From: Candidatus Binatia bacterium | Lineage (GTDB): Bacteria > Desulfobacterota > Binatia > Bin18 | Length of the DNA: 64,000 nt | Direction of reading: 5' to 3' | NCBI GenBank assembly: GCA_963664395.2 | Contig: OY761159.2 | Location: forward strand, 2,560,001 to 2,624,000 | Shown here: positions 9,669 to 37,600 of the stretch, one piece after another | Position numbering within the stretch: the stretch's first letter is position 1 | Layout: each line of letters begins with the position of its first letter | Position numbers and translations under genes: made by a program | The notes under the pieces: model-generated | What the model saw: the letters and a program-made list of their open reading frames with translations, nothing else | Database searches by the model: none | What the model was told of the DNA's origin: nothing

Positions 9669-12600
9669 TTACTCAGATTTGGGAATCGGCATTCGCGGAG
9701 GAGCAGTCTTCCACATTAGAGCTACCTCGTCTGGAGTGAGTCCGTAGGCTTCATTCACCAAGTCACTGATTTGGCGTTCCAGGTTCAAGGCTTCGGCGGC
9801 TTGAATGCGAGCTGGTTCAATTGTCCGAGCGTGCTCATCACGTAGGCTTCGGAGGGCGGCAACGCTGAGCGGGTTCTTTTTGCCACGTAGCTTTTTTACC
9901 TCTGCGACAAAAGCGTCCGAATCAAGATCGCTGGGAGTTCGGAGTTTATTACTTGGCTTAGCAATTTCATGTTCCATCTGTAGCCAGTCCAAAATATCCA
10001 GACGAGTTTCTTGCTGGGATTTAGTAATTTGAAGTAAGCTCCGTGTGGCCTTTACAATCTCTGTATAGATCGAATCTGTAGGCTGCGTGATAGGCAAGGC
10101 TTCCATCATATAAGCCATTGGAGACAAACTTCGTCTTTTAGATGAGTGAATACCCGCCAGTTGTGCCACCACATCAGTGGTGAGTTCAAGACAGCAAGAA
10201 GGTAGAAATCATTTGTAGGAAGGAAATAAGTCTTATCATTACCTAATGTCTCTGCTGCGTCGTATGCGTAGCGCGGGTGATATTGAATTACTTGGTAAAA
10301 TATTTTGGGCTTGTCAAACATTTTCCAGTAAGCACACGCTCGCAATTCCCACCAATACCTTCCTTTGTCCTGCCTTTTTTTAAGGACCTCCTCAAATGGT
10401 TTCATGTAATTATAAAGACTGGGATACTTGTTCCGAAACACTTCCTCGGCCATATCTCCTGCCTCTGACCAGGGGTTTGGAAAATCGCTACTCGACTTCA
10501 TTACGATCATCCACAGCCCAGCCCAATCGGCCTCCCAACGCTTAATATCCTGCCCCCTAATATACGGCCTGACGAGTTCAGCACATTTTGGATCTGTCGC
10601 CACCAAGGAATTCCTAGTCTCCGAATTGATGAAAAAGACTTGGTTAAATCCAGTAAGAATTCCACGGTACGGCTTAACGCTTGCAAAATCCGATAAAGGC
10701 TCAGCCCGCTTCTGAATTTTTTTCAACAGGTCAACGACGGCTTTCGATTCTAATTGCCAAGCCTCGCTTTTGAGTTGGGATAGTTCCATCTCTACCCCCT
10801 CCCGGTCGATCTGCTCACTTAGGTCATCGATACGCAACTGCTCGCGTGGGATAGTGCAAAGCCGAGCCGTGGTTGGTTTAGAGATAGCTGTTGGTTTACG
10901 TGCAACAATAATAGACGGAAATACATCTGCCTCCTTAAAAATTTGCTTGGCGTGGCCAAAATCTACCACCGACTCGATCCAAGCCTTCTCGCCGAAGAAG
11001 CGCCGGAGTGCCTCTCCATAGCCTGCTTTCATCCACTTATTGGTGACAATGAAGGAAAGGAGACCGCCCGGCTTCAAAACGCGGATACCCAACTCGTAAA
11101 AATAGACGTACAAATCTGCCATGCCATGAAAGGATTCATAGGCGTTCTGGAAATACGGCTTATACGGCTTCAGCAATTCCTGGCGGACATACGGTGGATT
11201 GCCTACCACCACATCAAAGCCACCTTGCTCGAACACCTCTGGAAACTCAGCTTTCCAATTGAAGGCTTTGGGGTGAACGTCTCTGGCATGGATAACACTA
11301 TTCCCTTGACAAATCGTTTTATCCAGACTGGTTAAGACCTTCCCCCGGGCCGCTGTCTTTACCCACAAGCTGAGTTGACAGATTTGTACTGCCTCTGCAT
11401 TGAGGTCCACGCCATACAGGTTGTTTTGCAGGATTTGCCGGTCGAGATCGAACAGGGTTGGCTGGCCGCTCAGTTCTTCCAACCGGTCGTTGGATGCCTG
11501 ATAGGCCGTGTATAGCTGGTCAAACGCTTCGATCAGAAACGCACCGCTACCACAAGCTGGGTCAAGCACGCGAATGCTGCCTAGTGCTTTCTGCCAGTCG
11601 GCCCAAAAACGAATGAGCGTCGCCCGCTGTGGGTTATTCAGCTTGTCCAGCTCGTACACGTTGGGATCAGCTATGACGCTACGTGCGGTTCCTGTTGCTT
11701 CTTGCTCGTGCTGTTTACGCAACACCTCAAAACGGTCGTTTAGTACGCCGCCTAATGCTTGCTGGATTATATAACGAGTGATGAAGGCGGGCGTGTAAAA
11801 GGCTCCTTCTGTCTTACGACGCGACTTCGTCTTCTTGGTATCGCCCTGTTCGATCTGTCCGTCCATCTCGTTTCGCAGCCGCTCCAGGTCGGTAATCGAC
11901 TGCTCAAAAATATGGCCTAAAATATCCACATCAACCATGAGCCCGGCTGTCTCGCCCTCTTCATACAAGGCGACTTCGTTGGCGGGGCGATAATCGTAAT
12001 CTCCTAAATTGCGAAAGTAGCCGCAGACTTCATCCGGCACGTTTAAACCATCCACATCCAACACCGGATCAGGAGCAAATAAGCCGCCATTATAGGCAGG
12101 GATGTTCAAACCCACGTTACCTTGGTCAATGGAACGGAACAGTCCGCGAAAATTGTCCCAGATTGGACGGGGGTTATATGGGTCGCGGTGCTCAAATGCC
12201 TTTTTGATTGTTTCAGGAGGCAAGAGGCTTCGGTCTTCACAAAAGGCGCAAAATAAAATCCGATCCAGGAGTTTTTGGGTACAGCGGAGTACTTCATTTG
12301 GAGAAATCTCAGGATTCCTCAAACGCAACTGGTCAAACGCAGCCCTGCGCATATCAGCATAGCGAGCATAAAAGTCCTTGGTTAATTCGCGCTCTGTGGT
12401 TTCTGAGGCTTTGAGGAGGGCGTACAGATGGCATCTGCCTGTTTTTGGGGTGACTCGCTCCGCGCCGAGCAGAAAGACGAAGCGCTTCAACAGGGTATCA
12501 TCTTCACTGAGGCGAACAGTTTCAAAGCGTTCATAGGTGTGTTGGTCTGAGCCCTTGTGATACAGCCGAGTTTCCCGCATTGAGGTGACAATGATCCAAT

Positions 12601-13036: not shown

Positions 13037-13200
13037 GACTGTCTCTCAGCACTGTCCTGGAGTCGTATGCGGAAAGTTGTAACCTTCTTAACTTTGTTTA
13101 AGGTGGAGAGCACCCCCACTCAGGAAGAATCGACTATCTTTACCAAGGGGCCATTGCTGGACTCACCCCCGCTCTCATGGTAAGCGCTGAGGCTGGCTGG

Positions 13201-13296
13201 GGGGAAGGATACGGCCCGGTGGCTGTACCGGTCTTCAAAACCGAGTTGCGTGGCGTAACGTTGCGCGGATGGTTCGACTCCATCCCTTCTCCGCCA
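13201..13296 (+). tRNA. selC: tRNA-Sec (anticodon UCA)
   Basis: 8-bp acceptor stem GGGGAAGG/CCTTCTCC plus GCCA, anticodon loop CTTCAAA, long variable arm, GGTTCGACTCC T-arm; next to selA. Confidence 0.95.
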
Positions 13297-19720: not shown

Positions 19721-20062
19721 GTGGCTGAACTATAGCTTCCCGCTGCTCCTGTCGCGTTTATCCGCAAGTGCCTTCGTGATAGCCGGGTTTACTGGACATA
19801 CCATGTCAATATGCGTCTGGGGCGACGGTTCATCGCCCGTGAGATGATTATTGCGGCGGCTGGGAGCTATGAGATTGTCGAGGCGTACCCGGACGACAAG
19901 TATTTTCCGAGTTACCTGCTCTTGGGGCGAAGAGGAGAGAAGGCGTTCCATGTTCTGTTCGGGGTCGATGTGGACGGACAGAATGTGCGAGTCATCACCG
20001 CGTACTACCCCGGCCCTGAGGAGTGGGAGGCAGACCTGAAGACCCGAAGGAGGAGCCCATGA
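19721..20062 (+). pseudogene. DUF4258-family putative toxin with in-frame TAG at codon 5
   Basis: GTG GCT GAA CTA TAG, then LPAAPVAFIRKCLRDSRVYWTYHVNMRL...YPDDKYFPSYL...VITAYYP...W; ORF track starts only at 19811. Confidence 0.7.
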
Positions 20063-20280
20063 AGTGCACCGTCTGTGGCGCTCGCATGAGTCCGACGACT
20101 ACCGCCTTACCATTCAAACTCTCCGAGGAACGTATTGTCATCCTCAAGCAACTGCCGGTCTTGCAGTGCACCTCCTGCCGCGAGTATCTCATTGAAGATG
20201 CCGTCATGGCGCGGATTGAGACGCTGCTCGGGCGTGCCGACAGTAGCGCAGAATTAGAGGTGCTTCGCTATGCGGCCTGA
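20059..20280 (+). CDS. YgiT-type zinc finger (MqsA-like) protein
   Basis: MKCTVCG...LPVLQCTSCREY; ATGA overlap with the DUF4258 gene. Confidence 0.88.
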   Translation: MKCTVCGARMSPTTTALPFKLSEERIVILKQLPVLQCTSCREYLIEDAVMARIETLLGRADSSAELEVLRYAA

Positions 20281-20548: not shown

Positions 20549-21997
20549 CTATCCCTCTTTAATCCCCGCCAATTCACGGGCATATTCCGCGGCGGCCGCA
20601 AAATCGTACTCACGATAGGTCTGGAGCTTTTCGGCTTCGAGGGAGCCCTCGGCGTGCACGGCGAGCACTTCCTGATAGCCGCCAAAGTCGCCCGCCGTCA
20701 GGTCTGAAATCAGATTCATCAGCCGCAACCGGTGCTCGGTTGAGGTGCCTTTCTTGCCGCCCAGATATTTCCGGACGTAGGGTCCGGTTGCCTCACTCTG
20801 CCAGTCCTCAAGGCTTGGCCCGGTCACCAGCAGGCCGCCGCTCACATCCTGTACCATCTGCACAGCCTGGTGGTAATTTGAGGCAAATTGATATTTGGCC
20901 ACGTTTGTCATCAGTGTATTGGGAATCGCAATGCCCGGCGGGACAACGCTGTGTTGCTGGGCCGCGGCCAGAATCAACCCTTGGACGGTGGCATGATAAC
21001 TGGCCAGCTTGGTCAGTTTCTCGCGAATATGGCCGGCTCGCTCAATCCCGTTGTATTCCGCAATCGCCTGTGACGCCCCGGCCATGAGCTCCAAGAGTGG
21101 CAGTTTGTAGGAAACGGCAGTGAAACGGTGAAACTTCACAAAGGTCAGGGCCATCAAACCCGCCGCAGCTATCTCGCCGGCCAGGAACACCCGCTCCCAG
21201 GGGACAAACACGTCGTCGAAAACGGTCAGCGTCTCCATCATCTTATGTTTGGCGCTGATCGGATACTCAAAGTCATTTCTTGGGAAACCGCCGTAGGAAC
21301 TGGCCAGAAGTTTCAGCCCTTTTGTGGCCGCCGGGATAGCGAAGGCCACGGCGTAGTCTTCATCGCCCTCGCGCATTGCGCGGGTCGGCAGGACAATGAT
21401 TTCGTCCGTATTGGTGGATACTGAGGTGTGAATTTTGGCTCCGCGGACGACGATGCCGTCGTCACGCCGGTCAACAATGCGCACATAATAATCCGGATGT
21501 TCCTGGCCCTGAGGACCCAGGCTGCGGTCGCCTTTGACATCGCTCTGGGCCACGGCAACCGCGTAATCATTATCCCGACACATTTCATAATATTTTCGGA
21601 CCCGCTCGCGGTATTGTCCCGCACCATGCTTGGCCATTTCTTCGGCGACAATATGCAGCGCCAGGAGTGCGTCTGTCCCGATTTCTTTGATCAAAACGAC
21701 CAGCGTCGCCCCCTCACGGGTACTGGCTTCAATGAGACGGCTGCGCTTGAGCAGGTCTTCGGCATTCTGAGGCAGGTGATAATAACGAGAATACTCTTGT
21801 CCGGTCTGCGGGTCGGTGACAACGGCCAGGTCGCGGTAACGTGGGTCTTCGGCCATCCGGTAGTCGATGCAGGCGTGTTCGACGGCTTTCCCGATAACCG
21901 GGTGGGTTGTGACATCTTCCACCCTTTCGCCGCGATAATAGACTTCTCGTCCGTCTTTCAGACTCTCTTTATATTGCTCTGGTGTGCGCAGACTCAT
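20549..21997 (-). CDS. 4-hydroxyphenylacetate 3-hydroxylase / 4-hydroxybutyryl-CoA dehydratase family flavoprotein
   Basis: Y.ESL.DGR.VY..GE.V.DVTTHP, SDVKGDRS, GIVVRGAK.H, FDDVFVPWERVF. Confidence 0.88.
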   Translation of the reverse strand: MSLRTPEQYKESLKDGREVYYRGERVEDVTTHPVIGKAVEHACIDYRMAEDPRYRDLAVVTDPQTGQEYSRYYHLPQNAEDLLKRSRLIEASTREGATLVVLIKEIGTDALLALHIVAEEMAKHGAGQYRERVRKYYEMCRDNDYAVAVAQSDVKGDRSLGPQGQEHPDYYVRIVDRRDDGIVVRGAKIHTSVSTNTDEIIVLPTRAMREGDEDYAVAFAIPAATKGLKLLASSYGGFPRNDFEYPISAKHKMMETLTVFDDVFVPWERVFLAGEIAAAGLMALTFVKFHRFTAVSYKLPLLELMAGASQAIAEYNGIERAGHIREKLTKLASYHATVQGLILAAAQQHSVVPPGIAIPNTLMTNVAKYQFASNYHQAVQMVQDVSGGLLVTGPSLEDWQSEATGPYVRKYLGGKKGTSTEHRLRLMNLISDLTAGDFGGYQEVLAVHAEGSLEAEKLQTYREYDFAAAAEYARELAGIKEG

Positions 21998-22068: not shown

Positions 22069-22473
22069 TTACTCGGGTCCGAGCATCAGTCGCAGCAGGG
22101 TTGTGGGCGCTATATACCCCTCCGAGGCTTCCGGACCCGTAATCGTTCCAATAGCAGAGAGCTTGTGATGCAGTGCGGTGAGCTTTGCCGAGGGAAGAGA
22201 AAGAACGAGTATATCTTTTTCATCTTTGACCAGAATTGCGCCCTCAAATTGTTGAATGGCCGTTCGGACCAGTCCAGCCAGTTCAGCCAGTTCAGTCTGG
22301 TCCGCAGCGTTCTCGCCGGTCAATTGCCACGAGACCGGCTGGATAATACTTCCGCTTCCTTCCGGAATAACCCCGACTCCATCCTGGGCTGGCGAAAAAC
22401 CAGACGTCAGTCCGACCAGGGTGAGACTGAGAGCAAGCCCGAGCAGATGTTTTTCGTGAGTCCGTAGTGTCAT
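22069..22473 (-). CDS. Hypothetical secreted protein
   Basis: GGAGG RBS, signal peptide MTLRTHEKHLLGLALSLTLVGL. Confidence 0.6.
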   Translation of the reverse strand: MTLRTHEKHLLGLALSLTLVGLTSGFSPAQDGVGVIPEGSGSIIQPVSWQLTGENAADQTELAELAGLVRTAIQQFEGAILVKDEKDILVLSLPSAKLTALHHKLSAIGTITGPEASEGYIAPTTLLRLMLGPE

Positions 22474-22626
22474 GTCATGCGCCTCCCATGTGTATTGTAC
22501 TATATTGTGACGGGTCACGGACCACGATGAAAGGGTCGTAGCATCCATTCTGTGGGTTTCTCTCCGGTATTTGCGTTGAGACGCAACACCACGTAAAGTT
22601 GCCAACATATTTGGTTCGTATCCAGC

Positions 22627-23112
22627 ATGGCAGAGCATCAACAGAAAGACGCGGTCAACGCTCTTGGGGAGAAACTCCTGCGTCTCCTGGCCGGCATATC
22701 AACCGAAGAACTCACCAACCCCGAGAAAGCCGCCCGAATGATAGAGCGGACGGTGCGGATGATGGTGGCCTATATTATCGTGGCCGGCCTCAGCCTGTTC
22801 TTTCTGTCAATTCCAAGTTTTATTGCTCTTGACGGCGGCCTGCATACGGAAAACTTCACTGCCTTTTTCTGGATCGGCAGCCCGTTTTTCGACTGTCTCA
22901 TCCTCCTCGCGCTCAGCCTCTTTCTGGCGCAAGCCAGAAACCTCTCGGTTGCCCTCGGCCTGGTAGGCGTATCCGGTTTTGAGGCATATTTGTATATGCA
23001 GTACGCCACACTGTCTGATTTTGTCATGCTCATCATGTGTCTGATGGTCCTCATTCATGCGCTCCAGATTCTTGGCCTGTTCGTGTTTGGACGCTTGCCT
23101 AATCTAGTCTGA
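22627..23112 (+). CDS. Hypothetical membrane protein (about 4 TM)
   Basis: Four hydrophobic segments; 20 nt upstream of the symporter. Confidence 0.7.
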   Translation: MAEHQQKDAVNALGEKLLRLLAGISTEELTNPEKAARMIERTVRMMVAYIIVAGLSLFFLSIPSFIALDGGLHTENFTAFFWIGSPFFDCLILLALSLFLAQARNLSVALGLVGVSGFEAYLYMQYATLSDFVMLIMCLMVLIHALQILGLFVFGRLPNLV

Positions 23113-23132
23113 TTTTGCGGAATGACCGAGCC

Positions 23133-25088
23133 ATGACGATCTTTATTGCCTCCGTGCTCGCCCTCATCATCATCCTCTGGTCGCTGGGCTGGTATGCCAA
23201 ACGCTGGGTGCGCACCGACAGTGACTTTTTGCTGGCTGGTCGGCAGGTCAGTCTCATTCCGGGGATTGCCAGCATTTGTGGCATTGCGTTTGCCGGCAGC
23301 ATGACCAGTATCATCCCCGGCCTGACCATCCAGTACGGTTTTCTTGGCTGGATCTTAGGCGGCAGCCTGCCCTTGGTGATTGGCTATATTGCGTATGGCG
23401 TCTTTGCCGGTCCGTATATTCGGCGCTGTGGCGCGTACACCATCCCCGAATGGCTGGAGATGCGCTTTGACACGCGCACGCGGGTGGTGGTCAGCATTGC
23501 CACCCTGCTTGGGGTGACTGGCATCGTCGCCATGAATGTCGTGGCCATGGCGCTTATCATGCAGAGTTTCCTCGGCGCTCCTGTGTGGCTCATGATTACC
23601 ATTGTCCTGGGCGGACACCTGACGTTTATTTTTCTGGGTGGCATGTGGGCGTTGACGCTCACCGACGTCGTTCAGGTCCTGCTGGGTTTTCTCTGCCTCC
23701 CGGCCCTGGCCGTATACTGTCTTGTCAGCTACGGCGGCTGGGAGCTGATTGAGACGAGTTTTGTGACGGCGACGCCCCTCACATCCGGTGTCCTGGGTTC
23801 TTTTCCGTGGTTTCAGTTGAGCTATCCGAGTGTGCTGACGGTTTCACTCGTAATCGGCTTTTTTATTCAGTGGGGCGGCAACTACTACTGGCTCCGAGCC
23901 GCGGCCGCGCGAACCGAACCTATTGCCCGCTGGCAATTTATTATTGGCGGCCTGCTCGTCCTCGTGATCCACGGCTCTATAGGCGTGCTCGGCCTGTATG
24001 CCGGCAGTGTACACCGCGCTGCTTTTCTGGACCCCGTGAATCCGGCCAACCCCATGGGCGCGTATGGCCTGCTCATGCGAGACTTTCCCCCGGCTATGGC
24101 ACTATTGGGTCTCGTGGCGGCCCTGGCCGCTACCATCTCAACGACGAGTAATGCGCATATGGGTATCACCTCCTCGCTCTCGCGTGACATCTACCAGCGC
24201 TTTATCCGGCCAGACGCCTCCCCGGAAGTGGTATTACGGATGAGCCGCATTCTCACCCTGCTGACCGGTTTTGCCATTTTGCTGCTGAGTTTTTATCCTG
24301 GCGGGCCGTATTATCTGCTGGCGGTGAGTTGTGCCATGCTCGGTCCCGCAGCCTGCGTCTTTCTGCTTGGACACCGCTGGGCCTATATCACCTCGACAGG
24401 TGCGTTTTGGGGCACATTAATTGGGGCGGTATCGATGCTCGTGTACGAAATCCTCAAATTTATGGACGTCCCACTGGGCTCAATGCATACGGTTGTGGTG
24501 GGCTCAATCATCACCTTCCCGACGGTGCTCGGCCTGTCCTGCCTCACGCAGCCACAGCCGGAAGGTACACTTCCGGACCAGCCGGAAACACTGCGCCTCG
24601 TTCCAGAGCAGGAACGTCTGTTGGTCTTGATTCGAACTGGCTATACGACCATGGTTGAACTGAGTGATTTCACCATGCTCAATTCCGCCGAGTGCCACCG
24701 CCTCATCCGTGAACTCGAACGGGCCGGACTCGTCCAGCGCTGGGGCGCAAGCGGGCTCGACTATTTCACTTTTGCCCTCACGCCGCAGGGCGATCGTACT
24801 CTCGCAGACCTGCCCAATGCGCCTACGGACTTTGTCGGCTTTGCGGGTCTGGATGCGGACAGTCGCTCAATTTTGGAGCAGCTTGAGGGGGGAGAGAAAA
24901 GTCTGCACGATCTCAGTACGGCAACCGGGGTGGCGGCCTCACCCCTGAGCGTCATCGTCAATCGCCTCGACCAACTCGGCTATGTTAGCGGGCATGGCAT
25001 ATGGGAGCGGGCTATGAGGCTGTCAGAAAAAGGTCGCGGGCTGCTTGAAGAGCGAAGGGTTCAGGCGACCAAGGACACCTCAATCTGA
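23133..25088 (+). CDS. Sodium:solute symporter (SSS/SLC5) fused to two C-terminal winged-helix domains
   Basis: DFLLAGR, YTIPEWLEMRF, GGMWALTLTDVVQ, AATIST, RDIYQRF; C-terminal ~160 aa soluble with two MarR/TrmB-like wHTH patterns. Confidence 0.88.
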   Translation: MTIFIASVLALIIILWSLGWYAKRWVRTDSDFLLAGRQVSLIPGIASICGIAFAGSMTSIIPGLTIQYGFLGWILGGSLPLVIGYIAYGVFAGPYIRRCGAYTIPEWLEMRFDTRTRVVVSIATLLGVTGIVAMNVVAMALIMQSFLGAPVWLMITIVLGGHLTFIFLGGMWALTLTDVVQVLLGFLCLPALAVYCLVSYGGWELIETSFVTATPLTSGVLGSFPWFQLSYPSVLTVSLVIGFFIQWGGNYYWLRAAAARTEPIARWQFIIGGLLVLVIHGSIGVLGLYAGSVHRAAFLDPVNPANPMGAYGLLMRDFPPAMALLGLVAALAATISTTSNAHMGITSSLSRDIYQRFIRPDASPEVVLRMSRILTLLTGFAILLLSFYPGGPYYLLAVSCAMLGPAACVFLLGHRWAYITSTGAFWGTLIGAVSMLVYEILKFMDVPLGSMHTVVVGSIITFPTVLGLSCLTQPQPEGTLPDQPETLRLVPEQERLLVLIRTGYTTMVELSDFTMLNSAECHRLIRELERAGLVQRWGASGLDYFTFALTPQGDRTLADLPNAPTDFVGFAGLDADSRSILEQLEGGEKSLHDLSTATGVAASPLSVIVNRLDQLGYVSGHGIWERAMRLSEKGRGLLEERRVQATKDTSI

Positions 25089-25117
25089 CCGAGCGGCATA
25101 ATGAGGAGGAAACAGCC

Positions 25118-26230
25118 ATGTCTCGAAGCAGCGTCGATACTCTCCTGCCCACGACCATGGTAGGCTCGTATCCCCGCCCACACTGGTTTACCTACCAGTT
25201 GCACGGGCGAGATATTTGGGATGCGTTTAAGAACGTCAACCACGCCGAGGCGTTTGAAGATGCGGTCCGCACCGTGCTGCAAGACCAGGAGCAAGCCGGA
25301 CTGGACATTCTAACGGACGGTCAGATGTGGTTCGACGACTATGGCGGCTGTATTGGGTCCTTTGTGTGGTACTGGTATGAGCGTATTCATGGCTTTGTGC
25401 CTATTAAACACAGTCACCCGTTTGTTGAAGGAGGGCAGGCTTCACACAATGATGCTGCCTGGCTCACAGACTGGGGCGCGACCGCCGTGACTGCTGCGGT
25501 CGAACGCGGGCCGCTGCGCTTAGCCGACCTGTACCATATTGCCCAACGCAATACCAAGAAGCCGGTGCGGTGCAGCGTGGGCGCGGGACCGATCAACCTG
25601 ACCTACCACGTCCATCTCGAATACTACAAAACCCAGAAAGACCTGGCCTACGCTCTGGCTCCTATCTTTAACGCCGAGATGAAGGAAATGGTGGCGAGTG
25701 GGGCCTCATTCCTTCAGTTGGAAGACCTCGGGGCGTGGCTGCCGTTATTAAGCGGCAACCTGGACGATTTCGGTTGGGTTGTTGATGTGATCAACCAAGC
25801 CGTTGAGGGCGTTGAGGCGAAGCTCGCCTGGCATTTCTGCTTTGGCGCAGCTTGGGGTAATGCCTCACAAGGCTTGTTTCCGTCAGGGACAGGCTATGGT
25901 TCCATCCTGCCCCATCTGTACGACACCAGGATTGAACAGTATGTGCTCGATTTTGCCGTCCGAGAAATGGAAGACGCGCATATTCTGAAAGACCTTCCTT
26001 CAGATAAGGAAGTCGCCGTCGGGGTGATTGATGTGCGCAATCTACAAATCGAAACACCAGAGCAGGTTGCGGAACGTATTCGCACAGTGCTCAAGTTCAT
26101 CGAGCCGGAGCGTGTGACTCTCACGACCGACTGCGGCCTGCGTGCTCTGCCCCGGTTCTGCGCCTACAATAAACTGCGCGCCATGGTCGAAGGAGCGCAG
26201 ATTGTGCGCGCTGAAATCGCCGGGGGCTAA
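25118..26230 (+). CDS. Cobalamin-independent methionine synthase II-like (MetE catalytic-domain-only) protein
   Basis: TTMVGSYPRP, QEQAGLDILTDG, WHFCFG (Zn His/Cys), GVIDV, TDCGL. Confidence 0.9.
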   Translation: MSRSSVDTLLPTTMVGSYPRPHWFTYQLHGRDIWDAFKNVNHAEAFEDAVRTVLQDQEQAGLDILTDGQMWFDDYGGCIGSFVWYWYERIHGFVPIKHSHPFVEGGQASHNDAAWLTDWGATAVTAAVERGPLRLADLYHIAQRNTKKPVRCSVGAGPINLTYHVHLEYYKTQKDLAYALAPIFNAEMKEMVASGASFLQLEDLGAWLPLLSGNLDDFGWVVDVINQAVEGVEAKLAWHFCFGAAWGNASQGLFPSGTGYGSILPHLYDTRIEQYVLDFAVREMEDAHILKDLPSDKEVAVGVIDVRNLQIETPEQVAERIRTVLKFIEPERVTLTTDCGLRALPRFCAYNKLRAMVEGAQIVRAEIAGG

Positions 26231-26242
26231 AGGAGACAAGAT

Positions 26243-27166
26243 ATGGCTACAGGCTCTATTCCGTGTGGTATTGCAGTTCCTCAAGTGTTTCTTGATACGC
26301 CGGTTGATATGCCGTTCATCCGGGATTTTGTTCTGCGTGCAGAAGCGCTCGATTATGAAAGCTTGTGGGTGCAGGAGACCATTGTCAGCGACTTTGCCAT
26401 TCTCGAACCGGTGGCCCTGCTCAACTATATCGCCGCCATTACCTCAAAAGCGCGCCTTGGCACCTCCGTCCTGCTGACGGTGCTGCGCAATCCGGTGCAA
26501 CTGGCCAAGAGTCTATCGAGCCTGGATCAGATGAGCCAGGGCCGACTCATCTTTGGTCTGGGCATTGGCGGACACGTTCCGGAGGCCCTCTTCGGCTACT
26601 CCAGCGAACTCCGCGCCCGGCGTTTTGTGGAGGGCATTACAACAATAAAGGCGCTGTGGACAGAACCCAAAGCTACGGTCAGTGGGACGTTCTGGAACTT
26701 CGAGAATGTGGCTATGGAACCCAAGCCGCTTCAAAAACCCCACCCGCCTATCTGGTTTGGCGCACGCGAGGAGAAACCGCTCCGGCGGGCCGTCCGGCAC
26801 GGCGATGGCTGGATGGGCGCGGGGTCGTCCTCAACCGCAGATTTCATGAAACAGTCGGGCTTGATTCGTCAGTTTCTCGACGAAGCCGACCGTAACCCGG
26901 CAACGTTTACGCTCTCCAAACGAGTCTATCTCGCTGTGGACAATGATCGAGACCGGGCGGAACGTCGGCTGCGGGAGTGGTTTGGCGTCCGGTATAAAAG
27001 TGCGGATATGGCCTCAAAGGTTGCCGTCTGGGGCAGTCTGGACGAATGCCGCAATAAGATCGGCGAGATCGTCCAAGCCGGGGCCGAACACCTCTTACTC
27101 AACCCGGCCTTTGATGACATGGAACATCTGGAGATATGTGCAAAAGAGATTATCCCCGCGCTTTAG
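26243..27166 (+). CDS. LLM-class flavin-dependent oxidoreductase
   Basis: RLGTSVL..RNPV.LAK..SLD.MSQGR, PKPLQKPHPPIWFG, GDGW. Confidence 0.92.
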   Translation: MATGSIPCGIAVPQVFLDTPVDMPFIRDFVLRAEALDYESLWVQETIVSDFAILEPVALLNYIAAITSKARLGTSVLLTVLRNPVQLAKSLSSLDQMSQGRLIFGLGIGGHVPEALFGYSSELRARRFVEGITTIKALWTEPKATVSGTFWNFENVAMEPKPLQKPHPPIWFGAREEKPLRRAVRHGDGWMGAGSSSTADFMKQSGLIRQFLDEADRNPATFTLSKRVYLAVDNDRDRAERRLREWFGVRYKSADMASKVAVWGSLDECRNKIGEIVQAGAEHLLLNPAFDDMEHLEICAKEIIPAL

Positions 27167-27190: not shown

Positions 27191-28417
27191 ATGATTACCA
27201 TGAATGAACACTATCTGAAGCTCCAGGCCTCGTATCTGTTTTCCGATATTGCCAAGCGGGTCAATGCGTATCAGGCCGACCATCCGAATCAAGCTATTAT
27301 TCGGTTGGGGATTGGCGATGTGACGCGGGCGCTGCCCGAGGCGTGCATCAGCGCCTTTCATCGCGCCGTGGATGAGATGGCGGACGACGCCACCTTTCGG
27401 GGCTACGGCCCGGAACTGGGCTATGATTTCTTACAAGAAGCCATCGTGGCCGGAGATTTTCAGCCGCGCGGGGTGACGCTCAGACCTGACGAAGTGTTTG
27501 TGAGTGACGGCGCGAAGTGCGACTCCGGCAATTTTCAGGAGCTTTTTGCCCCGGACACGCGCGTGGCGGTGCCCGACCCCGTCTACCCGGTGTACGTCGA
27601 TACCAACGTGATGGCAGGGCGGACCGCAGCCTGGCGGGACGGACGCTACGAGGGGCTGGTCTATCTGGAATCGACGTCTGCCAACCGGTATATCCCGGCT
27701 CTCCCGCAGGAAAAGGTTGATCTCATATATCTGTGTTTCCCCAATAACCCGACGGGCAGCATGATTACCACCGAGCAGTTGCGCCCCTGGGTGGACTATG
27801 CGCGGGAGAACAAGGCCCTCATTCTGTATGACGCGGCCTATGTCGAGTTTATCCGTGACGACAGCCTGCCGCAGAGTATTTACGAGATCGACGGCGCAAA
27901 AGAGGTTGCCGTAGAATTTCGGAGCCTGTCGAAGACGGCCGGCTTTACCGGCACGCGCTGTGCCTACACCATCGTGCCAAAAGAGTGTCAGGTGTATGAC
28001 TCTCAGGGCAACGCCCATGCGCTCCACTCGCTCTGGGACCGGCGCCAGTCCACAAAATTCAACAGTGTCTCCTATCCGGTTCAGCGTGCGGCTGAAGCCG
28101 CGTTCTCGCCTGATGGAAAAAAACAGATCCGAGACTTGAGTAATTACTATCTCGATAATGCCGCCCTGATCCGCGAGGCGATGACCACCTTGGGGTATCC
28201 CTGTGTTGGCGGAGAGCATTCACCCTATGTGTGGATTAAAACCAATGCTGACTCCTGGGAATTTTTTGACCGCTTACTGCAAAAAGCCGGGGTCGTCTGC
28301 ACGCCGGGAGCGGGGTTTGGTAAATGTGGAGAGGGCTATGTGCGCCTGAGCGCGTTTAACAGCCGCGAGAATGTCGAGACCGCCCTGGACCGTGTTTCAG
28401 ACGCGCTGACCGTCTGA
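27191..28417 (+). CDS. dapL: LL-diaminopimelate aminotransferase
   Basis: YLFSDIAKRV, LGIGDVT, GYGPE.GY, SDGAKCD, CFPNNPTG, SKTAGFTG. Confidence 0.96.
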   Translation: MITMNEHYLKLQASYLFSDIAKRVNAYQADHPNQAIIRLGIGDVTRALPEACISAFHRAVDEMADDATFRGYGPELGYDFLQEAIVAGDFQPRGVTLRPDEVFVSDGAKCDSGNFQELFAPDTRVAVPDPVYPVYVDTNVMAGRTAAWRDGRYEGLVYLESTSANRYIPALPQEKVDLIYLCFPNNPTGSMITTEQLRPWVDYARENKALILYDAAYVEFIRDDSLPQSIYEIDGAKEVAVEFRSLSKTAGFTGTRCAYTIVPKECQVYDSQGNAHALHSLWDRRQSTKFNSVSYPVQRAAEAAFSPDGKKQIRDLSNYYLDNAALIREAMTTLGYPCVGGEHSPYVWIKTNADSWEFFDRLLQKAGVVCTPGAGFGKCGEGYVRLSAFNSRENVETALDRVSDALTV

Positions 28418-29482: not shown

Positions 29483-29533
29483 TCGCCGCGCGGTTCCTGA
29501 GCGGATATTATGACGCCGACCGTTAAGGAGCAC

Positions 29534-29875
29534 ATGAAAACGAGCAAGACGAAATTGCACCCTGTTCACCCCGGAGAAGTGTTGCAGGAAGAGTTTCTGA
29601 AGCCGATGGGTCTGAGTCAGAACCGGTTAGCTTTAGACATTGGCGTTCCCGCCCGACGCATTAACGAAATCGTCCTCGGAAAACGTGGGGTAACTGCTGA
29701 TACTGCTCTTCGACTCGCCCGGTGTTTTGGAATATCCGTACAGTTTTGGCTCGGACTCCAGCTTGATTATGAACTGGATATGGCAACCGATAAACTATCC
29801 GAACGACTTGAGCGGGAAGTGAGAGTACACGAGAGTGTCCACGAGAGTGTCCACCAAGAGGACCGTACGGCGTAA
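29534..29875 (+). CDS. higA: HigA-family addiction-module antitoxin (no toxin adjacent)
   Basis: HPGEVLQEEFLKPMGLSQ, RINEIV.GKR.VTADTALRL, FWLGLQ; C-terminal 12-bp duplication (HESV-HESV). Confidence 0.9.
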   Translation: MKTSKTKLHPVHPGEVLQEEFLKPMGLSQNRLALDIGVPARRINEIVLGKRGVTADTALRLARCFGISVQFWLGLQLDYELDMATDKLSERLEREVRVHESVHESVHQEDRTA

Positions 29876-33817: not shown

Positions 33818-34084
33818 TTCTTCCTCCTTCTTTGTATTCGGACCGGACGCGCGACTCAGTGCGCTACGCGAAAAGAGCAACACCTGCTTCCAGCCGGGTT
33901 TCCATTGTATTGTCAACATCCTGAGAAACTTGTCAATCTCGAAGCGGTCTCATAAAGAGCAGCGGCGCAAGATGAGGATACAGCCGAGGTGGACGAAGCC
34001 CAGAGAGTTGGCGGGCTGATACTCAAAGCGGGTCAGGATACGGCGATAGTTTTGCAGCCAGGCAAACAACGCCCGACTTTCGCC

Positions 34085-34480
34085 CGACCCCAATCAAGCG
34101 GTGGGGTTGGGCGGCGGTGAGCCGCCGGGCGAGAGTGGCCGGGACCAGGGTGACTTCATACGGTGCAGCAGAGGCCGTGTGGACGGCGCCAGGCAGACCC
34201 TGGCGGTCTGCCACCGCCATGAGCTTCGTCCCTTTGCCCCGCTTGGTCGCTCCCCCGTCCGTTTTTTTCGCTACGATGAAGGGGCATCGCTGAAACACTC
34301 GCTCAGGTCCAACTCGCCCCGCGTCCGTACATCCTCGGCCAGCGCCTCCAAGACGCCCCGCAGGACGCCCGCCCGCACCCACTGCTGGAAGCGGCGAGGG
34401 CACGTCTGGTATGGGGGAAACCGCTCCGGTCAGTCCTGCCCCCGCGCCCCCGAGCGGAGAATCCACAAAATCCCACCGTG
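34085..34480 (-). mobile_element. Degenerate IS5-family transposase fragment
   Basis: GILWILRSGA..D*PERFPPYQTC.RRFQQW...ELDLSECF, then a frameshift to TKRGKGTKLMAVADRQGLP...EVTLV; internal stop. Confidence 0.85.
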
Positions 34481-34610
34481 TCGTAATTTCCTCCCATTTT
34501 GGAGGCGCCAGAAGCGGCCGGACTGTGTAGTGTTTTGTCGGCGGCGGGTGATGCCGCATCAGTCCGGTCCGGCGAGACCAGGGTGCCGAGGGGCACGTAA
34601 GGGAGAGACG

Positions 34611-37600
34611 ATGGTACACGACCAGCGAATCCAGCGAAGGGCGTCCTATTTTGCACTGCGGACTACGGAAGGGGGCCGAGGCGGCTGGTCCGTTGGCGGG
34701 CTGGGGGTGGTGCTGTTCCTGCTGGCGGCCTTCGTGGTGCCCTCTAGCGGAGTAGAGGGGGAGCCGCGGGGGGTGGTCGAGAATCCGGGGGCCAACTCGT
34801 ATCAGAGTGGGATTGGCCTCATTTCGGGCTGGGTGTGTGCGGCCGACTTAGTGGAGATTGAGATTGGGGACTTTCTGCCGCAAGCGGCTGCGTATGGCAC
34901 CGAGCGAATGGACACGGCCGGGGTGTGTGGGGACGCGGACAACGGCTTTGGCTTACTCTTCAACTGGAACCTGCTGGGGGCCGGCGAGCATACGGTACGG
35001 GTGCTGGCCGATGGGGAAGAGGTTGGGCAAGCGACCTTCACGGTGACGACGCTGGACGCGGAGTTTCTGAGCGGGGCTGAGGGGGAATGTGTGGCCGAGG
35101 ACTTCCCGGCGATGGGCCGGACCGTGACCTTGGAATGGCAACAGACCAGTCAGAATTTTGTGATCGCGGGCGGGAGTGCCCCGGCAAGGGCTCACACCGG
35201 CACCCGGCCGAGTGGTCTGACGGGGTATCTGGAGAATCCGGGGGCCAATTCGTATCAGAGTGGCATCGGAGTGATTTCGGGCTGGGTGTGTGACGCCGAC
35301 ACAGTCGAGATTGAAATTGGGACCACCGGGCGGCAGGCGGCCGCGTATGGGACCGAGCGGCTCGATACGGAGTCGATGTGTGGCGATATGGACAATGGCT
35401 TTGGGTTGTTGTTCAACTGGAATCTGTTGGGCGAGGGCGAGCATGAGGTGGTGGCATGGGTGGATGGCCTTGAGTTGGGGCGGGCCACGGTGCGGGTGAC
35501 GACGCTGGGGGCGGAGTTTCTGCGGGATGTGGAGGGGGCATGTATGGTCGAGGACTTCCCGGATATGGGACAGACCGTGACCTTGGAATGGCAACAGACC
35601 AGTCAGAACTTCGTGATTGCCGGGTATGAGGCGGTGGACGAGGGCGGTACGCCGTCCGAGGAGCCGCGCGGGTCGGCAACGGGAGGCGGGTCGGCAACGG
35701 GAGGCGGGTCGTCAACGGGGGGCGGGTCGTCGCCGAGGAGTGTGAGCGAGCCGGCAGGCGGGGACTTGCCGAAGCATACGGGTACCACGGGGCGACTGGT
35801 CGCCGGGCAGGCGGTGACGGGACGGTTTCACTCCATAGAGGACGGAGACTGGTTTGCCGTAGACCTGAAGCGGGGCTACCAGTACGAGTTCCAGATCAGA
35901 GCTGGAGAGACCAACCCGTCTGACATCCCGAGCATACAAGGACTGTATGACGATGTCGGGCGGACCATTGGATGGACGCAGGTTGTCTCAGGCCGGAGGC
36001 AGATGAGTTTCACGGCCCTGCGGACCGGGCGCTACTATATTGGCCTCATTACTATCGACAGTGTGCCTTCCAATAGAGAGGGCATCGGCACCTACGTGTT
36101 GACGCTAACGGCCGAGGCGGGGACGCTGCCACCCGCGCCGCCGCCACCCGACGACTATGGGGAGGCGATGGATGACACGACGGCGCAGCTCCCGGTGGGA
36201 GGGTCGGTGACGGGCGTCCTCAACTATGTGGACGACCTGACCTATGGATACGATCATGATGTGTTTGCCATGGAGTTGGTAGCGGACCAGACTTACCGGA
36301 TTGATATAAGACGGACCACGGGCGGAGCCCGGCTCGACCTGCGGGGGATCTACGATGCGCAGGGCAGGCAGATTCCCGGCACAGCGGAGGCCGACTATTT
36401 GTTGAGCTATCCGCATACCCGCCAGTGGTTCACGGCGACGACGACCGGCCGGCATTACATTGTAGTGAGCAGCCACAGCGCTCCCTTTTACTCCGGTGGC
36501 CTCGGCCCGGTGCACCCGACCGAGGATTATCGGCTGTCGGTCGCAGACATGGAGCCCTCCGACGACTATACGGCGGACCCCATGACAACGGGGCGGGTGA
36601 CGGTGGGCGGTTCGGTGACGGGCCGATTTGAGCAACCGCGGGATGAGGACTGGTTTGCGGTAGACCTGGAGGCCGCCAGGACCTACCGAATCGATTTGAC
36701 GAGAGAACCCGAGCAGCAGGGATACTCCCCTTTTGGGTTAGACCCCTATTTGGCCGGGGTCTACGCTGCTGCGAGCACCCGTCTGCCCAACACGACAAAT
36801 GACGATGGGGGAGCTTACAAGAATGCGCAGGTGTTTGTGACGCCGTCTGTAACGAGGACCTATTATATTGCGGCGCGCAGTAAGTATGGCGACGGGGAAT
36901 ATGAGCTGGCGGTGGTCGATGAGACGGATGTGCCGGCGAATACGAGTACACGGAAGCAGGTGCAGGTGGGCGGCTCGGTGTCGAGCAAGATCGCAAATGA
37001 TGCCGATGTGGATTGGTTTGCGGTAGAGTTCGTGGCGGGCCAGACCTATCGGATTGACCAAAATCTCGGCGGCCCCTGGTGGAGCCCGGATCTGAAGGGG
37101 ATTCACGATGCGCAGGGCACGCTGCTTGCCAACGACGACTATTTTATGGTCCCGTATTCCGCCGTCCGGCAGTGGTTCACGGCTACCACGACGGGCAAGC
37201 ACTATATTGCGGCGGGCGGTTTCTTGGCATTCATAAATGAGAAAACGGGCACCTATACGCTGTCGGTGGTGGCCATGGTCCCACCAGACGACTATGCAGC
37301 CGATACGACGACGACGGGGCGGGTGACGGTCGGGGCCACAGTGACGGGCCGCTTTGAGCGCCAGTACGATGAGGACTGGTGGGCGGCTGAGTTGCTGGAT
37401 GGCAGAACCTACCGAATCGATCTGACCCGCGAGGACTTTATCTGGACGAGTTCGATAAGTGGCTATTACAACCCCCTGAAGACCAAAATAGCCGGAGTTT
37501 ACACGGCCGAGAGCGTCTTGCTGCCCAACACCACAAAGGACAGCCCGAGCTCCCCTTCGGATCTGCGGGTGTCGGTGACGTCGTCGGAATCGGGGACGTA

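Follow-up and report, generated by a model that had tools for sequence, protein, structure and literature searches.

The stretch of DNA analyzed here (the window, 64,000 nucleotides of contig OY761159.2 from a Candidatus Binatia bacterium) contains a gene in which a sodium:solute symporter (SSS) is followed, in one polypeptide, by two winged-helix (WH) domains in tandem. The gene is a single open reading frame (ORF) on the forward strand, 23115..25088, of 657 amino acids if read from the TTG at 23115. Its true start is likely the ATG at 23133, giving 651 amino acids, because the N termini of relatives coincide with the matching residue (the M-T/P-I-F-I position); residue numbers throughout are those of the 657-residue frame. 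The encoded protein, here called SSS-WH, consists of an SSS core with 13 transmembrane (TM) helices, of which TM2 and TM7 are broken (23115..24566, residues 1 to 484); a flexible linker from TM13 to the first winged helix (24546..24602, residues ~478 to 496); an acidic winged helix, WH1 (24603..24809, residues 497 to 565); a disordered linker (24810..24854, residues 566 to 580); and a basic, MarR-like winged helix, WH2 (24855..25082, residues 581 to 656). WH1, WH2, and the linker between them are referred to below as the module. A first-pass annotation, made from the sequence alone, had placed this gene between one for a four-TM protein and closely spaced MetE-like and luciferase-like (LLM) genes, and Pfam, NCBIfam, and hydropathy agree with it on these flanking genes.

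Sequence and fold of the fused protein

By sequence, the core is a member of the sodium:solute symporter family (PF00474; TC 2.A.21). The Pfam SSF model matches residues 38 to 437 (E = 8e-29; 101.1 bits against a cutoff of 22.8) and is covered in full (1 to 406). NCBIfam returned generic SSS matches alone, under the equivalog cutoffs, and points to no named substrate subfamily, as the matches to PutP, PanF, ActP, and VC_2705 all fall far under their cutoffs (for PutP, 70 bits against 515.5). Hydropathy gives 13 hydrophobic segments, with lysine and arginine residues after TM1, and the full-length AlphaFold2 model (pLDDT 86.9, pTM 0.87) places 13 helices in the membrane, TM2 and TM7 being interrupted at residues 58 to 61 and 254 to 256. 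PutP has about 13 TM helices around a LeuT-type core, with its N terminus outside and its C terminus inside. Given the 13 predicted TM helices and the positive residues after TM1, an arrangement like that of PutP, the WH tail is predicted to lie in the cytoplasm, in keeping with the earlier proposal of a membrane-tethered regulator.

The module carries both the sequence signature and the fold of MarR-family winged helix-turn-helix (wHTH) domains. For WH1, Pfam matches at residues 502 to 542 (E = 6e-8) exceed their cutoffs (MarR_2, 33.2 bits against 27; HTH_24, 32.7 against 21.9); for WH2, the matches to HTH_27 and HTH_5 at residues 584 to 625 are weak and under the cutoffs (E = 0.003 to 0.014). 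A profile built from 56 tail sequences matches MarR-family chains in the PDB across both halves (best E, 6e-6). AlphaFold2, run on the same 56-sequence alignment, predicts two helix-helix-helix-wing units joined by a disordered linker (mean pLDDT 92.1, pTM 0.82); pLDDT is below 50 at module residues 87 to 89, within this linker, and down to 53 in the block 481 to 490 ahead of WH1. Both linkers vary in sequence, that between the winged helices in the alignment of tails and that after TM13 in a 25-sequence alignment, where it is poorly conserved. VIA-align superposes WH2 on MarR/ArsR/PadR-type regulators with Z of 12 to 13.5 and a root mean square deviation (rmsd) of 1.3 to 2.5 A over ~80 residues, the matches to MarR chains being limited to their wHTH cores. 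The two wHTH-like units that the first-pass annotation had set at about 24600 to 24810 and 24850 to 25050 were accordingly recovered by Pfam, the PDB profile search, AlphaFold2, and VIA-align as two MarR-type winged helices in the last ~170 residues, with boundaries that fit those given above. Past residue 490, Pfam matches are to wHTH families only, with none to STAC, PAS, HisKA, or HATPase_c at E <= 0.1 and none to Trans_reg_C in the SSS-WH protein. An ESM Atlas look-up of the tail returned generic wHTH clusters at 0.77, under the level at which the tool counts a match as more than a lead.

WH1 and WH2 differ in their charge. In the set of 56 sequences, the mean net charge of WH1 is -2.45, with a positive value in 4, and the segment from helix 2 to helix 3 carries a net negative charge in every one; acidic residues occur at position 515 in 93%, at 518 in 100%, at 523 in 77%, at 532 in 88%, and at 535 in 84%. 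The conserved residues are G509, Y510, M513, E515, D518, D/N523, N/H528, E/R532, L534, R542, and G547 in WH1 and L587, K/R617, L618, R620, G622, Y623, G628, W630, R632, and G640 in WH2; those invariant in the 25-sequence alignment, which reaches down to 33% identity, are G509, E515, D518, L534, R542, G547, and L587.

As a whole, the module has no close fit among the solved structures listed. Foldseek fits it poorly to MarR dimers, SarS, and ScpB (TM-score 0.30 to 0.43, rmsd 8 to 15 A), and its top whole-module matches are the SelB C terminus, ScpB, ESCRT-II, YceH, and SarS (E = 1e-4 to 1e-3; TM-score ~0.3). Among the Foldseek and VIA-align matches listed, none has the identical two-domain arrangement, all being single winged helices or otherwise-arranged tandems; this does not establish the arrangement as new. 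Each unit resembles the MarR family in sequence and fold by the values given above. In contrast to the MarR homodimer, which is assembled through N- and C-terminal helices and presents two equivalent wHTH units, SSS-WH has two nonequivalent units in one chain, an acidic WH1, a different relative orientation of WH1 and WH2 (TM-score 0.3 to 0.43), and a transporter to which the module is attached or beside which it is encoded. The tandem winged-helix proteins ScpB, SelB (C terminus), SarS, and YceH likewise have two or more winged helices per chain but differ in domain arrangement (TM-score ~0.3, rmsd 8 to 15 A) and show no sequence relationship past the generic wHTH.

Distribution of the fusion and split forms

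A search of 5.8 billion proteins with SSS-WH returned 131 proteins at E 0.001. The best 85 (P0001 to P0085) all score at least 360 bits, and 84 of them are 620 to 670 amino acids long (the exception, P0074, has 448); the next match scores 88 bits. The tail aligns throughout, down to 33 to 35% identity in the 25-sequence alignment. Among species-representative genomes, 162 loci with a relative were recovered, from Binatia, from many Bacillota, and from some Spirochaetes. The fusion is thus not peculiar to this assembly, and the 84 full-length relatives rule out an assembly or frameshift artifact as its origin. Locus counts given below refer to the best 80 of the 162 loci, namely, 23 orthologous, 23 paralogous, and 34 Bacillota-group loci.

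Metagenome-assembled genomes of Binatia carry two paralogs each, ~90% and ~61% identical, and the window's own genome holds two fused copies. Bacillota isolates with a member of the family include Brevibacillus panacihumi, Bhargavaea, Virgibacillus, Geomicrobium, Sporosarcina luteola, Mesobacillus maritimus, Lederbergia, and Papillibacter cinnamivorans. In an even sample of 201 genomes from the window's phylum, the module occurred at E <= 1e-15 in two, both of the window's genus and one of them the window's own genome, and the distribution is therefore patchy. Its sparseness in its own phylum, together with its shared occurrence in Bacillota and Spirochaetes, is suggestive of horizontal transfer. 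SSS proteins with a tandem MarR-type WH tail form a distinct clade of sodium:solute symporters that is apparently undescribed. The module is the distinguishing mark of this clade; as a rule it is joined to the end of TM13, and now and then it is encoded by its own gene (~161 residues) next to that of the transporter on the downstream side.

The second fused copy in the window's genome (locus L093, G000:C1:3450698-3451180, reverse strand) is an open frame of 656 amino acids in the ~61%-identical paralog group. Its neighbors differ from those in the window and encode an Amidohydro_2 protein, a DUF3237 protein, histidyl-tRNA synthetase, and a BNR-repeat protein.

The module also occurs as a gene of its own. 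A phmmer search with the tail alone returned 73 proteins, 17 of fused length and 30 of at most 175 amino acids; of 19 tail homologs examined, 14 start with methionine and cover the whole module, and the other 5 are longer, with SSS-type membrane sequence before the module. A metagenome scan with a five-sequence alignment of free modules led to one locus, L081, in which the TAA stop of a 508-residue SSS gene precedes GGAGGG and the ATG of the free module, with a PF04199 cyclase gene next in line. In Papillibacter cinnamivorans DSM 12816 (locus L091), a 506-residue SSS gene is separated by 33 nucleotides from a 161-residue module; here a divergent sigma-54 activator gene precedes genes for an MBL-fold hydrolase, a thiolase-like protein, BKACE, the SSS protein, the module, and an HMGL-like enzyme. 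Over 485 residues, the L091 SSS protein shares 34% identity with the window core (fused Bacillota-group proteins, 33 to 38%), and its free module matches the window tail at E = 5e-12. In both of the two contexts examined, then, the standalone module directly follows an SSS gene. The start of its own (GGAGGG, ATG) and the occurrence in an isolate genome rule out an artifact as the origin of the split form. As the same pair is found both fused and as adjacent genes, we consider that core and module act together.

P. cinnamivorans has three versions in all: two fused forms (frames of 666 and 665 amino acids, ~19 kb apart on one contig; L087 and L090) and the split pair (L091, G002:C14:38500-55000).

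The genes that accompany SSS-WH in the Bacillota-group loci are unlike those in the window. A PF04199 cyclase-family gene is present in 28 of 34, mostly adjacent, with BKACE in 12, a fumarylacetoacetate-hydrolase-family (FAH) gene in 10, and thiolase genes. Since companion genes differ in this way between the orthologous and Bacillota-group loci, the module seems to travel with the transporter and not with a particular enzyme set or promoter. Within 6 kb, 24 of the 34 loci encode a separate regulator, TrmB-type in 13 and a sigma-54 PAS-domain activator in 11. That so many loci have a regulator of their own supports a role of the module as a subunit of the transporter. The helix-3 motif D-S-x-x-S-N of WH1 is retained across phyla, and neighboring genes and regulators are wholly different; a motif that stays constant while these change would fit a protein interface better than a helix that reads an operator.

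The two types of regulator never occur together in the Bacillota group (L046 to L080). This exclusivity suggests that catabolic operons of similar makeup (cyclase, BKACE, FAH family, and thiolase) are regulated in one of two alternative ways.

Predicted docking of the module on the transporter

Complex prediction was carried out with the core (residues 1 to 484, 25-row alignment) and the module (56-row alignment) as separate partners. The complex scored 0.80 (runs of 0.80, 0.81, and 0.79), against 0.00, 0.00, and 0.31 for the controls; agreement between the runs extends to 94% or more of contacts, with a partner pLDDT of 79 or above. Of 80 solved complexes used for calibration, 58 reached that mark, as did 2 of 110 mismatched pairs; these figures are only roughly valid, given that custom alignments were used. 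The models support a docked state in which the module contacts loops on the cytoplasmic side of the transporter. On the core, the predicted contacts fall at residues 31 to 49 (the loop that follows TM1, together with the cytoplasmic end at which TM2 begins), 100 to 123, 182, 266 to 267, 357 to 370, and 419 to 423, of which the stretch 100 to 123 includes the invariant residues R103, R104, G106, A107, E112, E115, R117, and R123. Of the 37 core interface residues, 33 lie in loops that the separately made 13-TM hydropathy topology assigns to the cytoplasm.

On the module, the contacts are residues 512 to 514, 517 to 518, 521, 523 to 526, 528, 545 to 548, and 550 to 552 of WH1 and 597, 608 to 609, 612, 616, and 628 to 632 of WH2. 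On the secondary structure, WH1 contributes helix 2, the beginning of helix 3, and its wing, and WH2 contributes helix 3 and the tip of its wing. The surfaces of helix 2, helix 3, and the wing are the faces by which MarR-type proteins read DNA. Interface positions of the module vary less than the rest of its folded positions, at a mean entropy of 1.83 against 2.34 (one-sided Mann-Whitney test, p 0.005). WH1 is predicted to touch the R103/R104/E112/E115/R117 loop, and in the complex model its negative helix-2/helix-3 segment faces the invariant R103, R104, R117, and R123. An acidic WH1 set opposite an arginine-rich loop would explain both conservation patterns, and it speaks against two equivalent DNA-reading heads. 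The first-pass annotation had pictured a pseudodimeric head; the unlike charges of WH1 and WH2, the poor whole-module fit to MarR dimers, and the predicted contacts of helix 3 and the wing of both units with the transporter tell against that picture.

These observations lead us to regard the module as a subunit that is bound to the transporter, serves regulation or sensing, and derives from a MarR-type DNA-binding domain, a reading whose chance of being right we judge to be about even. The acidic WH1 and the wing of WH2 would be seated on the conserved cytoplasmic loops rich in arginine and at the cytoplasmic end where TM2 begins. By analogy with the LeuT fold, this part of TM2 is the counterpart of the mobile inner-gate helix, and a module seated there could lock or sense the conformation of the transporter. 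The docked module would then provide feedback, gating transport in response to a cytoplasmic signal, or it would report the transporter's conformational state. Binding of DNA (or RNA), if it persists, would require undocking and would occur mainly via the basic WH2.

The same evidence bears on a second possibility, the main rival, in which the transporter holds a DNA-binding head inactive and transport, or its absence, frees the module to bind an operator near the membrane or, in the split forms, anywhere in the cell. This would amount to sequestration of the Mlc/PtsG kind within a single polypeptide. The MarR-type sequence and fold of the module accord with it, as do the basic, seemingly DNA-competent helix 3 and wing of WH2, the flexible 18-residue linker to the core, and the existence of free modules in split loci; moreover, the modeled interface buries exactly the DNA-reading faces, as sequestration would require. 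Conserved noncoding blocks lie upstream of the window operon, in which no other regulator was seen. It is harder to reconcile with the acidic helix 2/helix 3 of WH1 in 56 of 56 sequences, with a helix-3 motif that stays constant across phyla despite differing operons, and with the dedicated regulator already present in 24 of the 34 Bacillota-group loci. In L081, the module's own ribosome-binding site comes right after the SSS stop, a layout more usual for complex subunits, and no conserved palindrome was found in the 23-sequence spacer alignment described below. We consider such a switch possible, with a clearly smaller chance than the subunit reading.

Alternatively, the module may be an adaptor for RNA, for another protein (the TrmB-type or sigma-54 regulator, or an enzyme), or for anionic lipids, in which case the docking would be a modeling artifact. 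The SelB C terminus, ScpB, ESCRT-II, and YceH, among the top whole-module Foldseek matches (E ~1e-4), bind RNA or proteins; the basic WH2 would sit close to the membrane; and TrmB-type and sigma-54 regulators co-occur with the SSS-WH gene. However, the Foldseek fits reach a TM-score of ~0.3 only, the complex score is 0.49 above that of the best control, and no single partner is specifically indicated, so that we think an adaptor improbable.

Neighboring genes

The gene for the four-TM protein (22627..23112, forward strand) encodes 161 amino acids with four hydrophobic segments and no Pfam or NCBIfam family match; 2 nucleotides separate its stop from the TTG of the SSS gene, and 20 separate it from the ATG. 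Downstream on the same strand, the MetE-like gene (25118..26230, 370 amino acids, GAGGAGG upstream) belongs to the catalytic-domain family of cobalamin-independent methionine synthase (Pfam Meth_synt_2, E = 6.6e-21; best NCBIfam match PRK04326, 220.7 bits against a cutoff of 406). It is followed by the LLM gene (26243..27166, 307 amino acids), a luciferase-like oxidoreductase of the F420-dependent class (Bac_luciferase, E = 1.5e-49; TIGR03619, 170 bits against a cutoff of 166.9), and, 24 nucleotides 3' of it, by a gene for LL-diaminopimelate aminotransferase (DapL; 27191..28417, forward strand; TIGR03542, 567 bits against 364.7), which is probably a housekeeping gene, cotranscribed or merely adjacent. 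On the reverse strand, 22069..22473 encodes a small protein with one N-terminal, signal-peptide-like hydrophobic segment and a likely start at ATG 22473 behind GGGAGG; it has no Pfam match and is 40 to 74% identical across orthologous loci. Beyond it, also on the reverse strand, is a 482-residue HpaB_N/HpaB-family protein (20549-21997). Its score of 222.8 bits against an NCBIfam 4-hydroxyphenylacetate 3-monooxygenase cutoff of 480.2 suggests that it may be another member of that superfamily, and it is 91 to 98% identical in 20 of the 23 orthologous loci.

The neighborhood made up of the HpaB, small divergent, four-TM, MetE-like, LLM, and DapL genes recurs only in the 23 close orthologous loci. 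The four-TM gene is present in 22 of these and in none of the 23 paralogous or 34 Bacillota-group loci, and the MetE-like gene is present in 17, 0, and 0, respectively. An LLM gene is found in 22 orthologous and 21 paralogous loci (in the latter 30 to 35% identical and, in 4, directly downstream) and in none of the Bacillota group. The first-pass annotation had proposed that the protein couples uptake to Zn-dependent alkyl transfer and had looked to conservation of the four-TM, SSS, and MetE-like genes as a unit. With synteny confined to close relatives, the link to alkyl transfer finds no support in these counts, and we rejected the MetE-like/LLM/four-TM neighborhood as defining the system.

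Upstream region and proposed operators

The divergent intergenic region (22474..22626, 153 nucleotides) contains two conserved noncoding blocks. Two palindromes within it had been put forward as operators, GTGAC-GG-GTCAC (22507..22518) and TTGCGT-TGAG-ACGCAA (22571..22586), and both are present exactly as proposed, each inside a conserved block. The second overlaps the -35 hexamer of a candidate promoter read by eye (-35 TTGCGT, 22571-76; 17-nucleotide spacer; -10 TAAAGT, 22594-99), which a consensus promoter scan did not list; that scan listed no site in 22474-22626, and its terminator-like sites were not commoner than in shuffled sequence. What did not hold up is the symmetry. In an alignment of the spacer from the window and 22 orthologous sequences (23 in all), most orthologs of the first palindrome read GTGACGGGTCCC or a GTTCC variant (GTCAC changed to GTCCC or GTTCC), by which the symmetry is lost, and the second is perfect in the window and L045 only, most orthologs having TTGCCT...ACGCAA or other variants. 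Inverted repeats of 5 to 6 bp are expected by chance at ~1.6 and ~0.4 per region of 150 nucleotides (spacers of 0 to 10; our own estimate), and an inverted-repeat finder (seed 6, minimum length 10) reported neither palindrome. The conserved blocks are functional candidates in their own right; from the alignment, nothing appears to link them to the WH tail.

The blocks span 22500-22545 and 22568-22610 and are shared with L001 to L020, L042, and L045. In most orthologs, the first carries GGTCC-C-GGACC, a short palindrome unlike that of the window.

These results bear most directly on the model of the first-pass annotation, a constitutively tethered one-component regulator that binds as a pseudodimer to the palindromes at 22507-18 and 22571-86 and controls an operon of the four-TM, SSS, MetE-like, and LLM genes. 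Its architecture and cytoplasmic location agree with our findings, the genes are on the same strand and tightly spaced, and both palindromes lie in conserved blocks, one of them over a candidate -35. On the other hand, WH1 and WH2 are not equivalent, the whole-module fold is unlike that of MarR dimers and SarS (TM-score 0.30 to 0.43), the symmetry of both sites is gone in most of the 22 orthologous sequences, and chance alone yields repeats of 5 to 6 bp. Of the 23 orthologous loci, 6 also lack the MetE-like gene, as does every other member of the family, and docking is predicted to occupy the reading faces. This is the least supported of the readings considered here, and we regard it as unlikely.

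Other features of the window

The sole Rfam match in the window, with none in or near the SSS-WH locus, is a selenocysteine tRNA at 13200-13292 on the forward strand (RF01852; 66.7 bits against a gathering score of 47). At 19811-20280 (forward strand), two small overlapping ORFs encode an 83-residue DUF4258 protein (E = 4.6e-13) and then an 85-residue protein with Cys-x2-Cys motifs and weak similarity to YokU-like "putative antitoxin" proteins; judged by these similarities, the two may be a toxin-antitoxin pair. A 121-residue protein encoded at 29510-29875 (forward strand) has an XRE-type HTH_3 domain (E = 1.5e-9) and a short HESV repeat at its end. G+C content is 0.645, with a GC skew of +0.198, at 34001-36000 and 0.488 at 10001-12000; elsewhere, it is ~0.58.

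Discussion

The architecture of SSS-WH, its conservation, its split forms, and the fold of its module are observed in this analysis. From these we infer that the module has a gating or relay function as a subunit of the transporter. Several observations weigh against a module that has exchanged nucleic acid binding for attachment to a transporter. WH2 superposes on DNA-bound MarR-family proteins (Z of 12 to 13), and its helix 3 and wing stay electropositive (mean +2.8; positive in 53 of 56 sequences), a charge that resembles that of the wHTH region of neighboring TrmB-like regulators (+2.83, n = 12). The docking and the interface faces are predicted from structure models, and the interface from the complex model alone. 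Positions of the core interface are not conserved above other cytoplasmic-loop positions (0.79 against 0.87, p 0.17), and part of the core loop motif is general to SSS proteins. Furthermore, a separate regulator was not seen in the clustered flanks of the window operon or in 10 of the 34 Bacillota-group loci, some of the contigs being short, and both palindromes upstream of the operon sit inside conserved noncoding blocks.

The inferred system overlaps only in part with those already known. ToxR- and CadC-type regulators cross the membrane with a single helix and have an OmpR-type wHTH at the N terminus and a sensor in the periplasm. The portions of the published accounts covered here describe a winged helix tethered to the cytoplasmic membrane in these proteins, as in SSS-WH, and the participation of a transporter, the co-sensor LysP, in CadC signaling. 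SSS-WH differs from them in its 13 TM helices, its C-terminal tandem MarR-type module, and the lack of a Trans_reg_C match. In the Mlc-PtsG (EIICB-Glc) system, the transport state of a transporter decides whether it captures a transcription factor at the membrane; the factor is a ROK-family repressor, the transporter belongs to the phosphotransferase system, and the two genes are unlinked. This system is the closest analog of a switch in which the module is held and released, DNA binding by the SSS module being putative.

The SLC5/STAC histidine kinases CbrA and CrbS, termed "transceptors," are like SSS-WH in that an SSS (SLC5) domain carries a cytoplasmic C-terminal signaling module and transport or substrate binding can be coupled to regulation, as set out in the portions of a 2021 review of prokaryotic SSS proteins covered here (PMC7918813). 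In contrast to these kinases, SSS-WH has two winged helices, with no STAC, PAS, HisKA, or HATPase domain detected, and lacks both a phosphorelay and a partner response regulator. A different parallel is offered by AmtB-GlnK and SbtA-SbtB: according to the sections covered of a 2023 review of transporter regulation (PMC10710835), a small cytoplasmic protein whose gene is next to that of the transporter binds the transporter's cytoplasmic face and, in response to a metabolic signal, locks or blocks it. Their genetic linkage parallels the fused and adjacent forms of SSS-WH, whereas the SSS module is a winged helix and not a PII protein, and the complex described here is predicted only.

In agreement with the first-pass annotation, which knew of no direct fusion of this kind, we found no description of the SSS-WH architecture in the open-access literature searched. 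Within the parts covered, the words "winged," "MarR," and "DNA-binding" do not occur in the 2021 review (PMC7918813), nor do "winged" and "MarR" in the 2023 review (PMC10710835). The latter, in the same parts, notes that many transporter-fused domains of unknown function exist and cites censuses for major facilitator superfamily transporters, which could list HTH fusions.

A bolder interpretation is that SSS-WH represents a new class of bacterial transceptor, in which a secondary transporter directly holds and releases its own nucleic-acid-binding head; we offer it as a tentative proposal that is rather more likely to be wrong than right. The cytoplasmic loops would in this case mimic nucleic acid for the reading faces of both winged helices. 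If it is true, the conformational cycle of an SSS transporter would set promoter or mRNA occupancy with no kinase, second messenger, or proteolysis, and the free-module genes of split loci would be a diffusible version of the switch.

Transceptors and regulatory add-on domains are recognized themes of which few types are understood. For annotation, the family counsels caution, as a MarR or HTH match on a membrane protein need not mean a transcription factor. The fused and split versions within P. cinnamivorans provide a natural experimental comparison, and the cultured Bacillota hosts, together with the named charged residues of the interface, make the question of whether the module is a gate, a relay, or a DNA switch testable at the bench.

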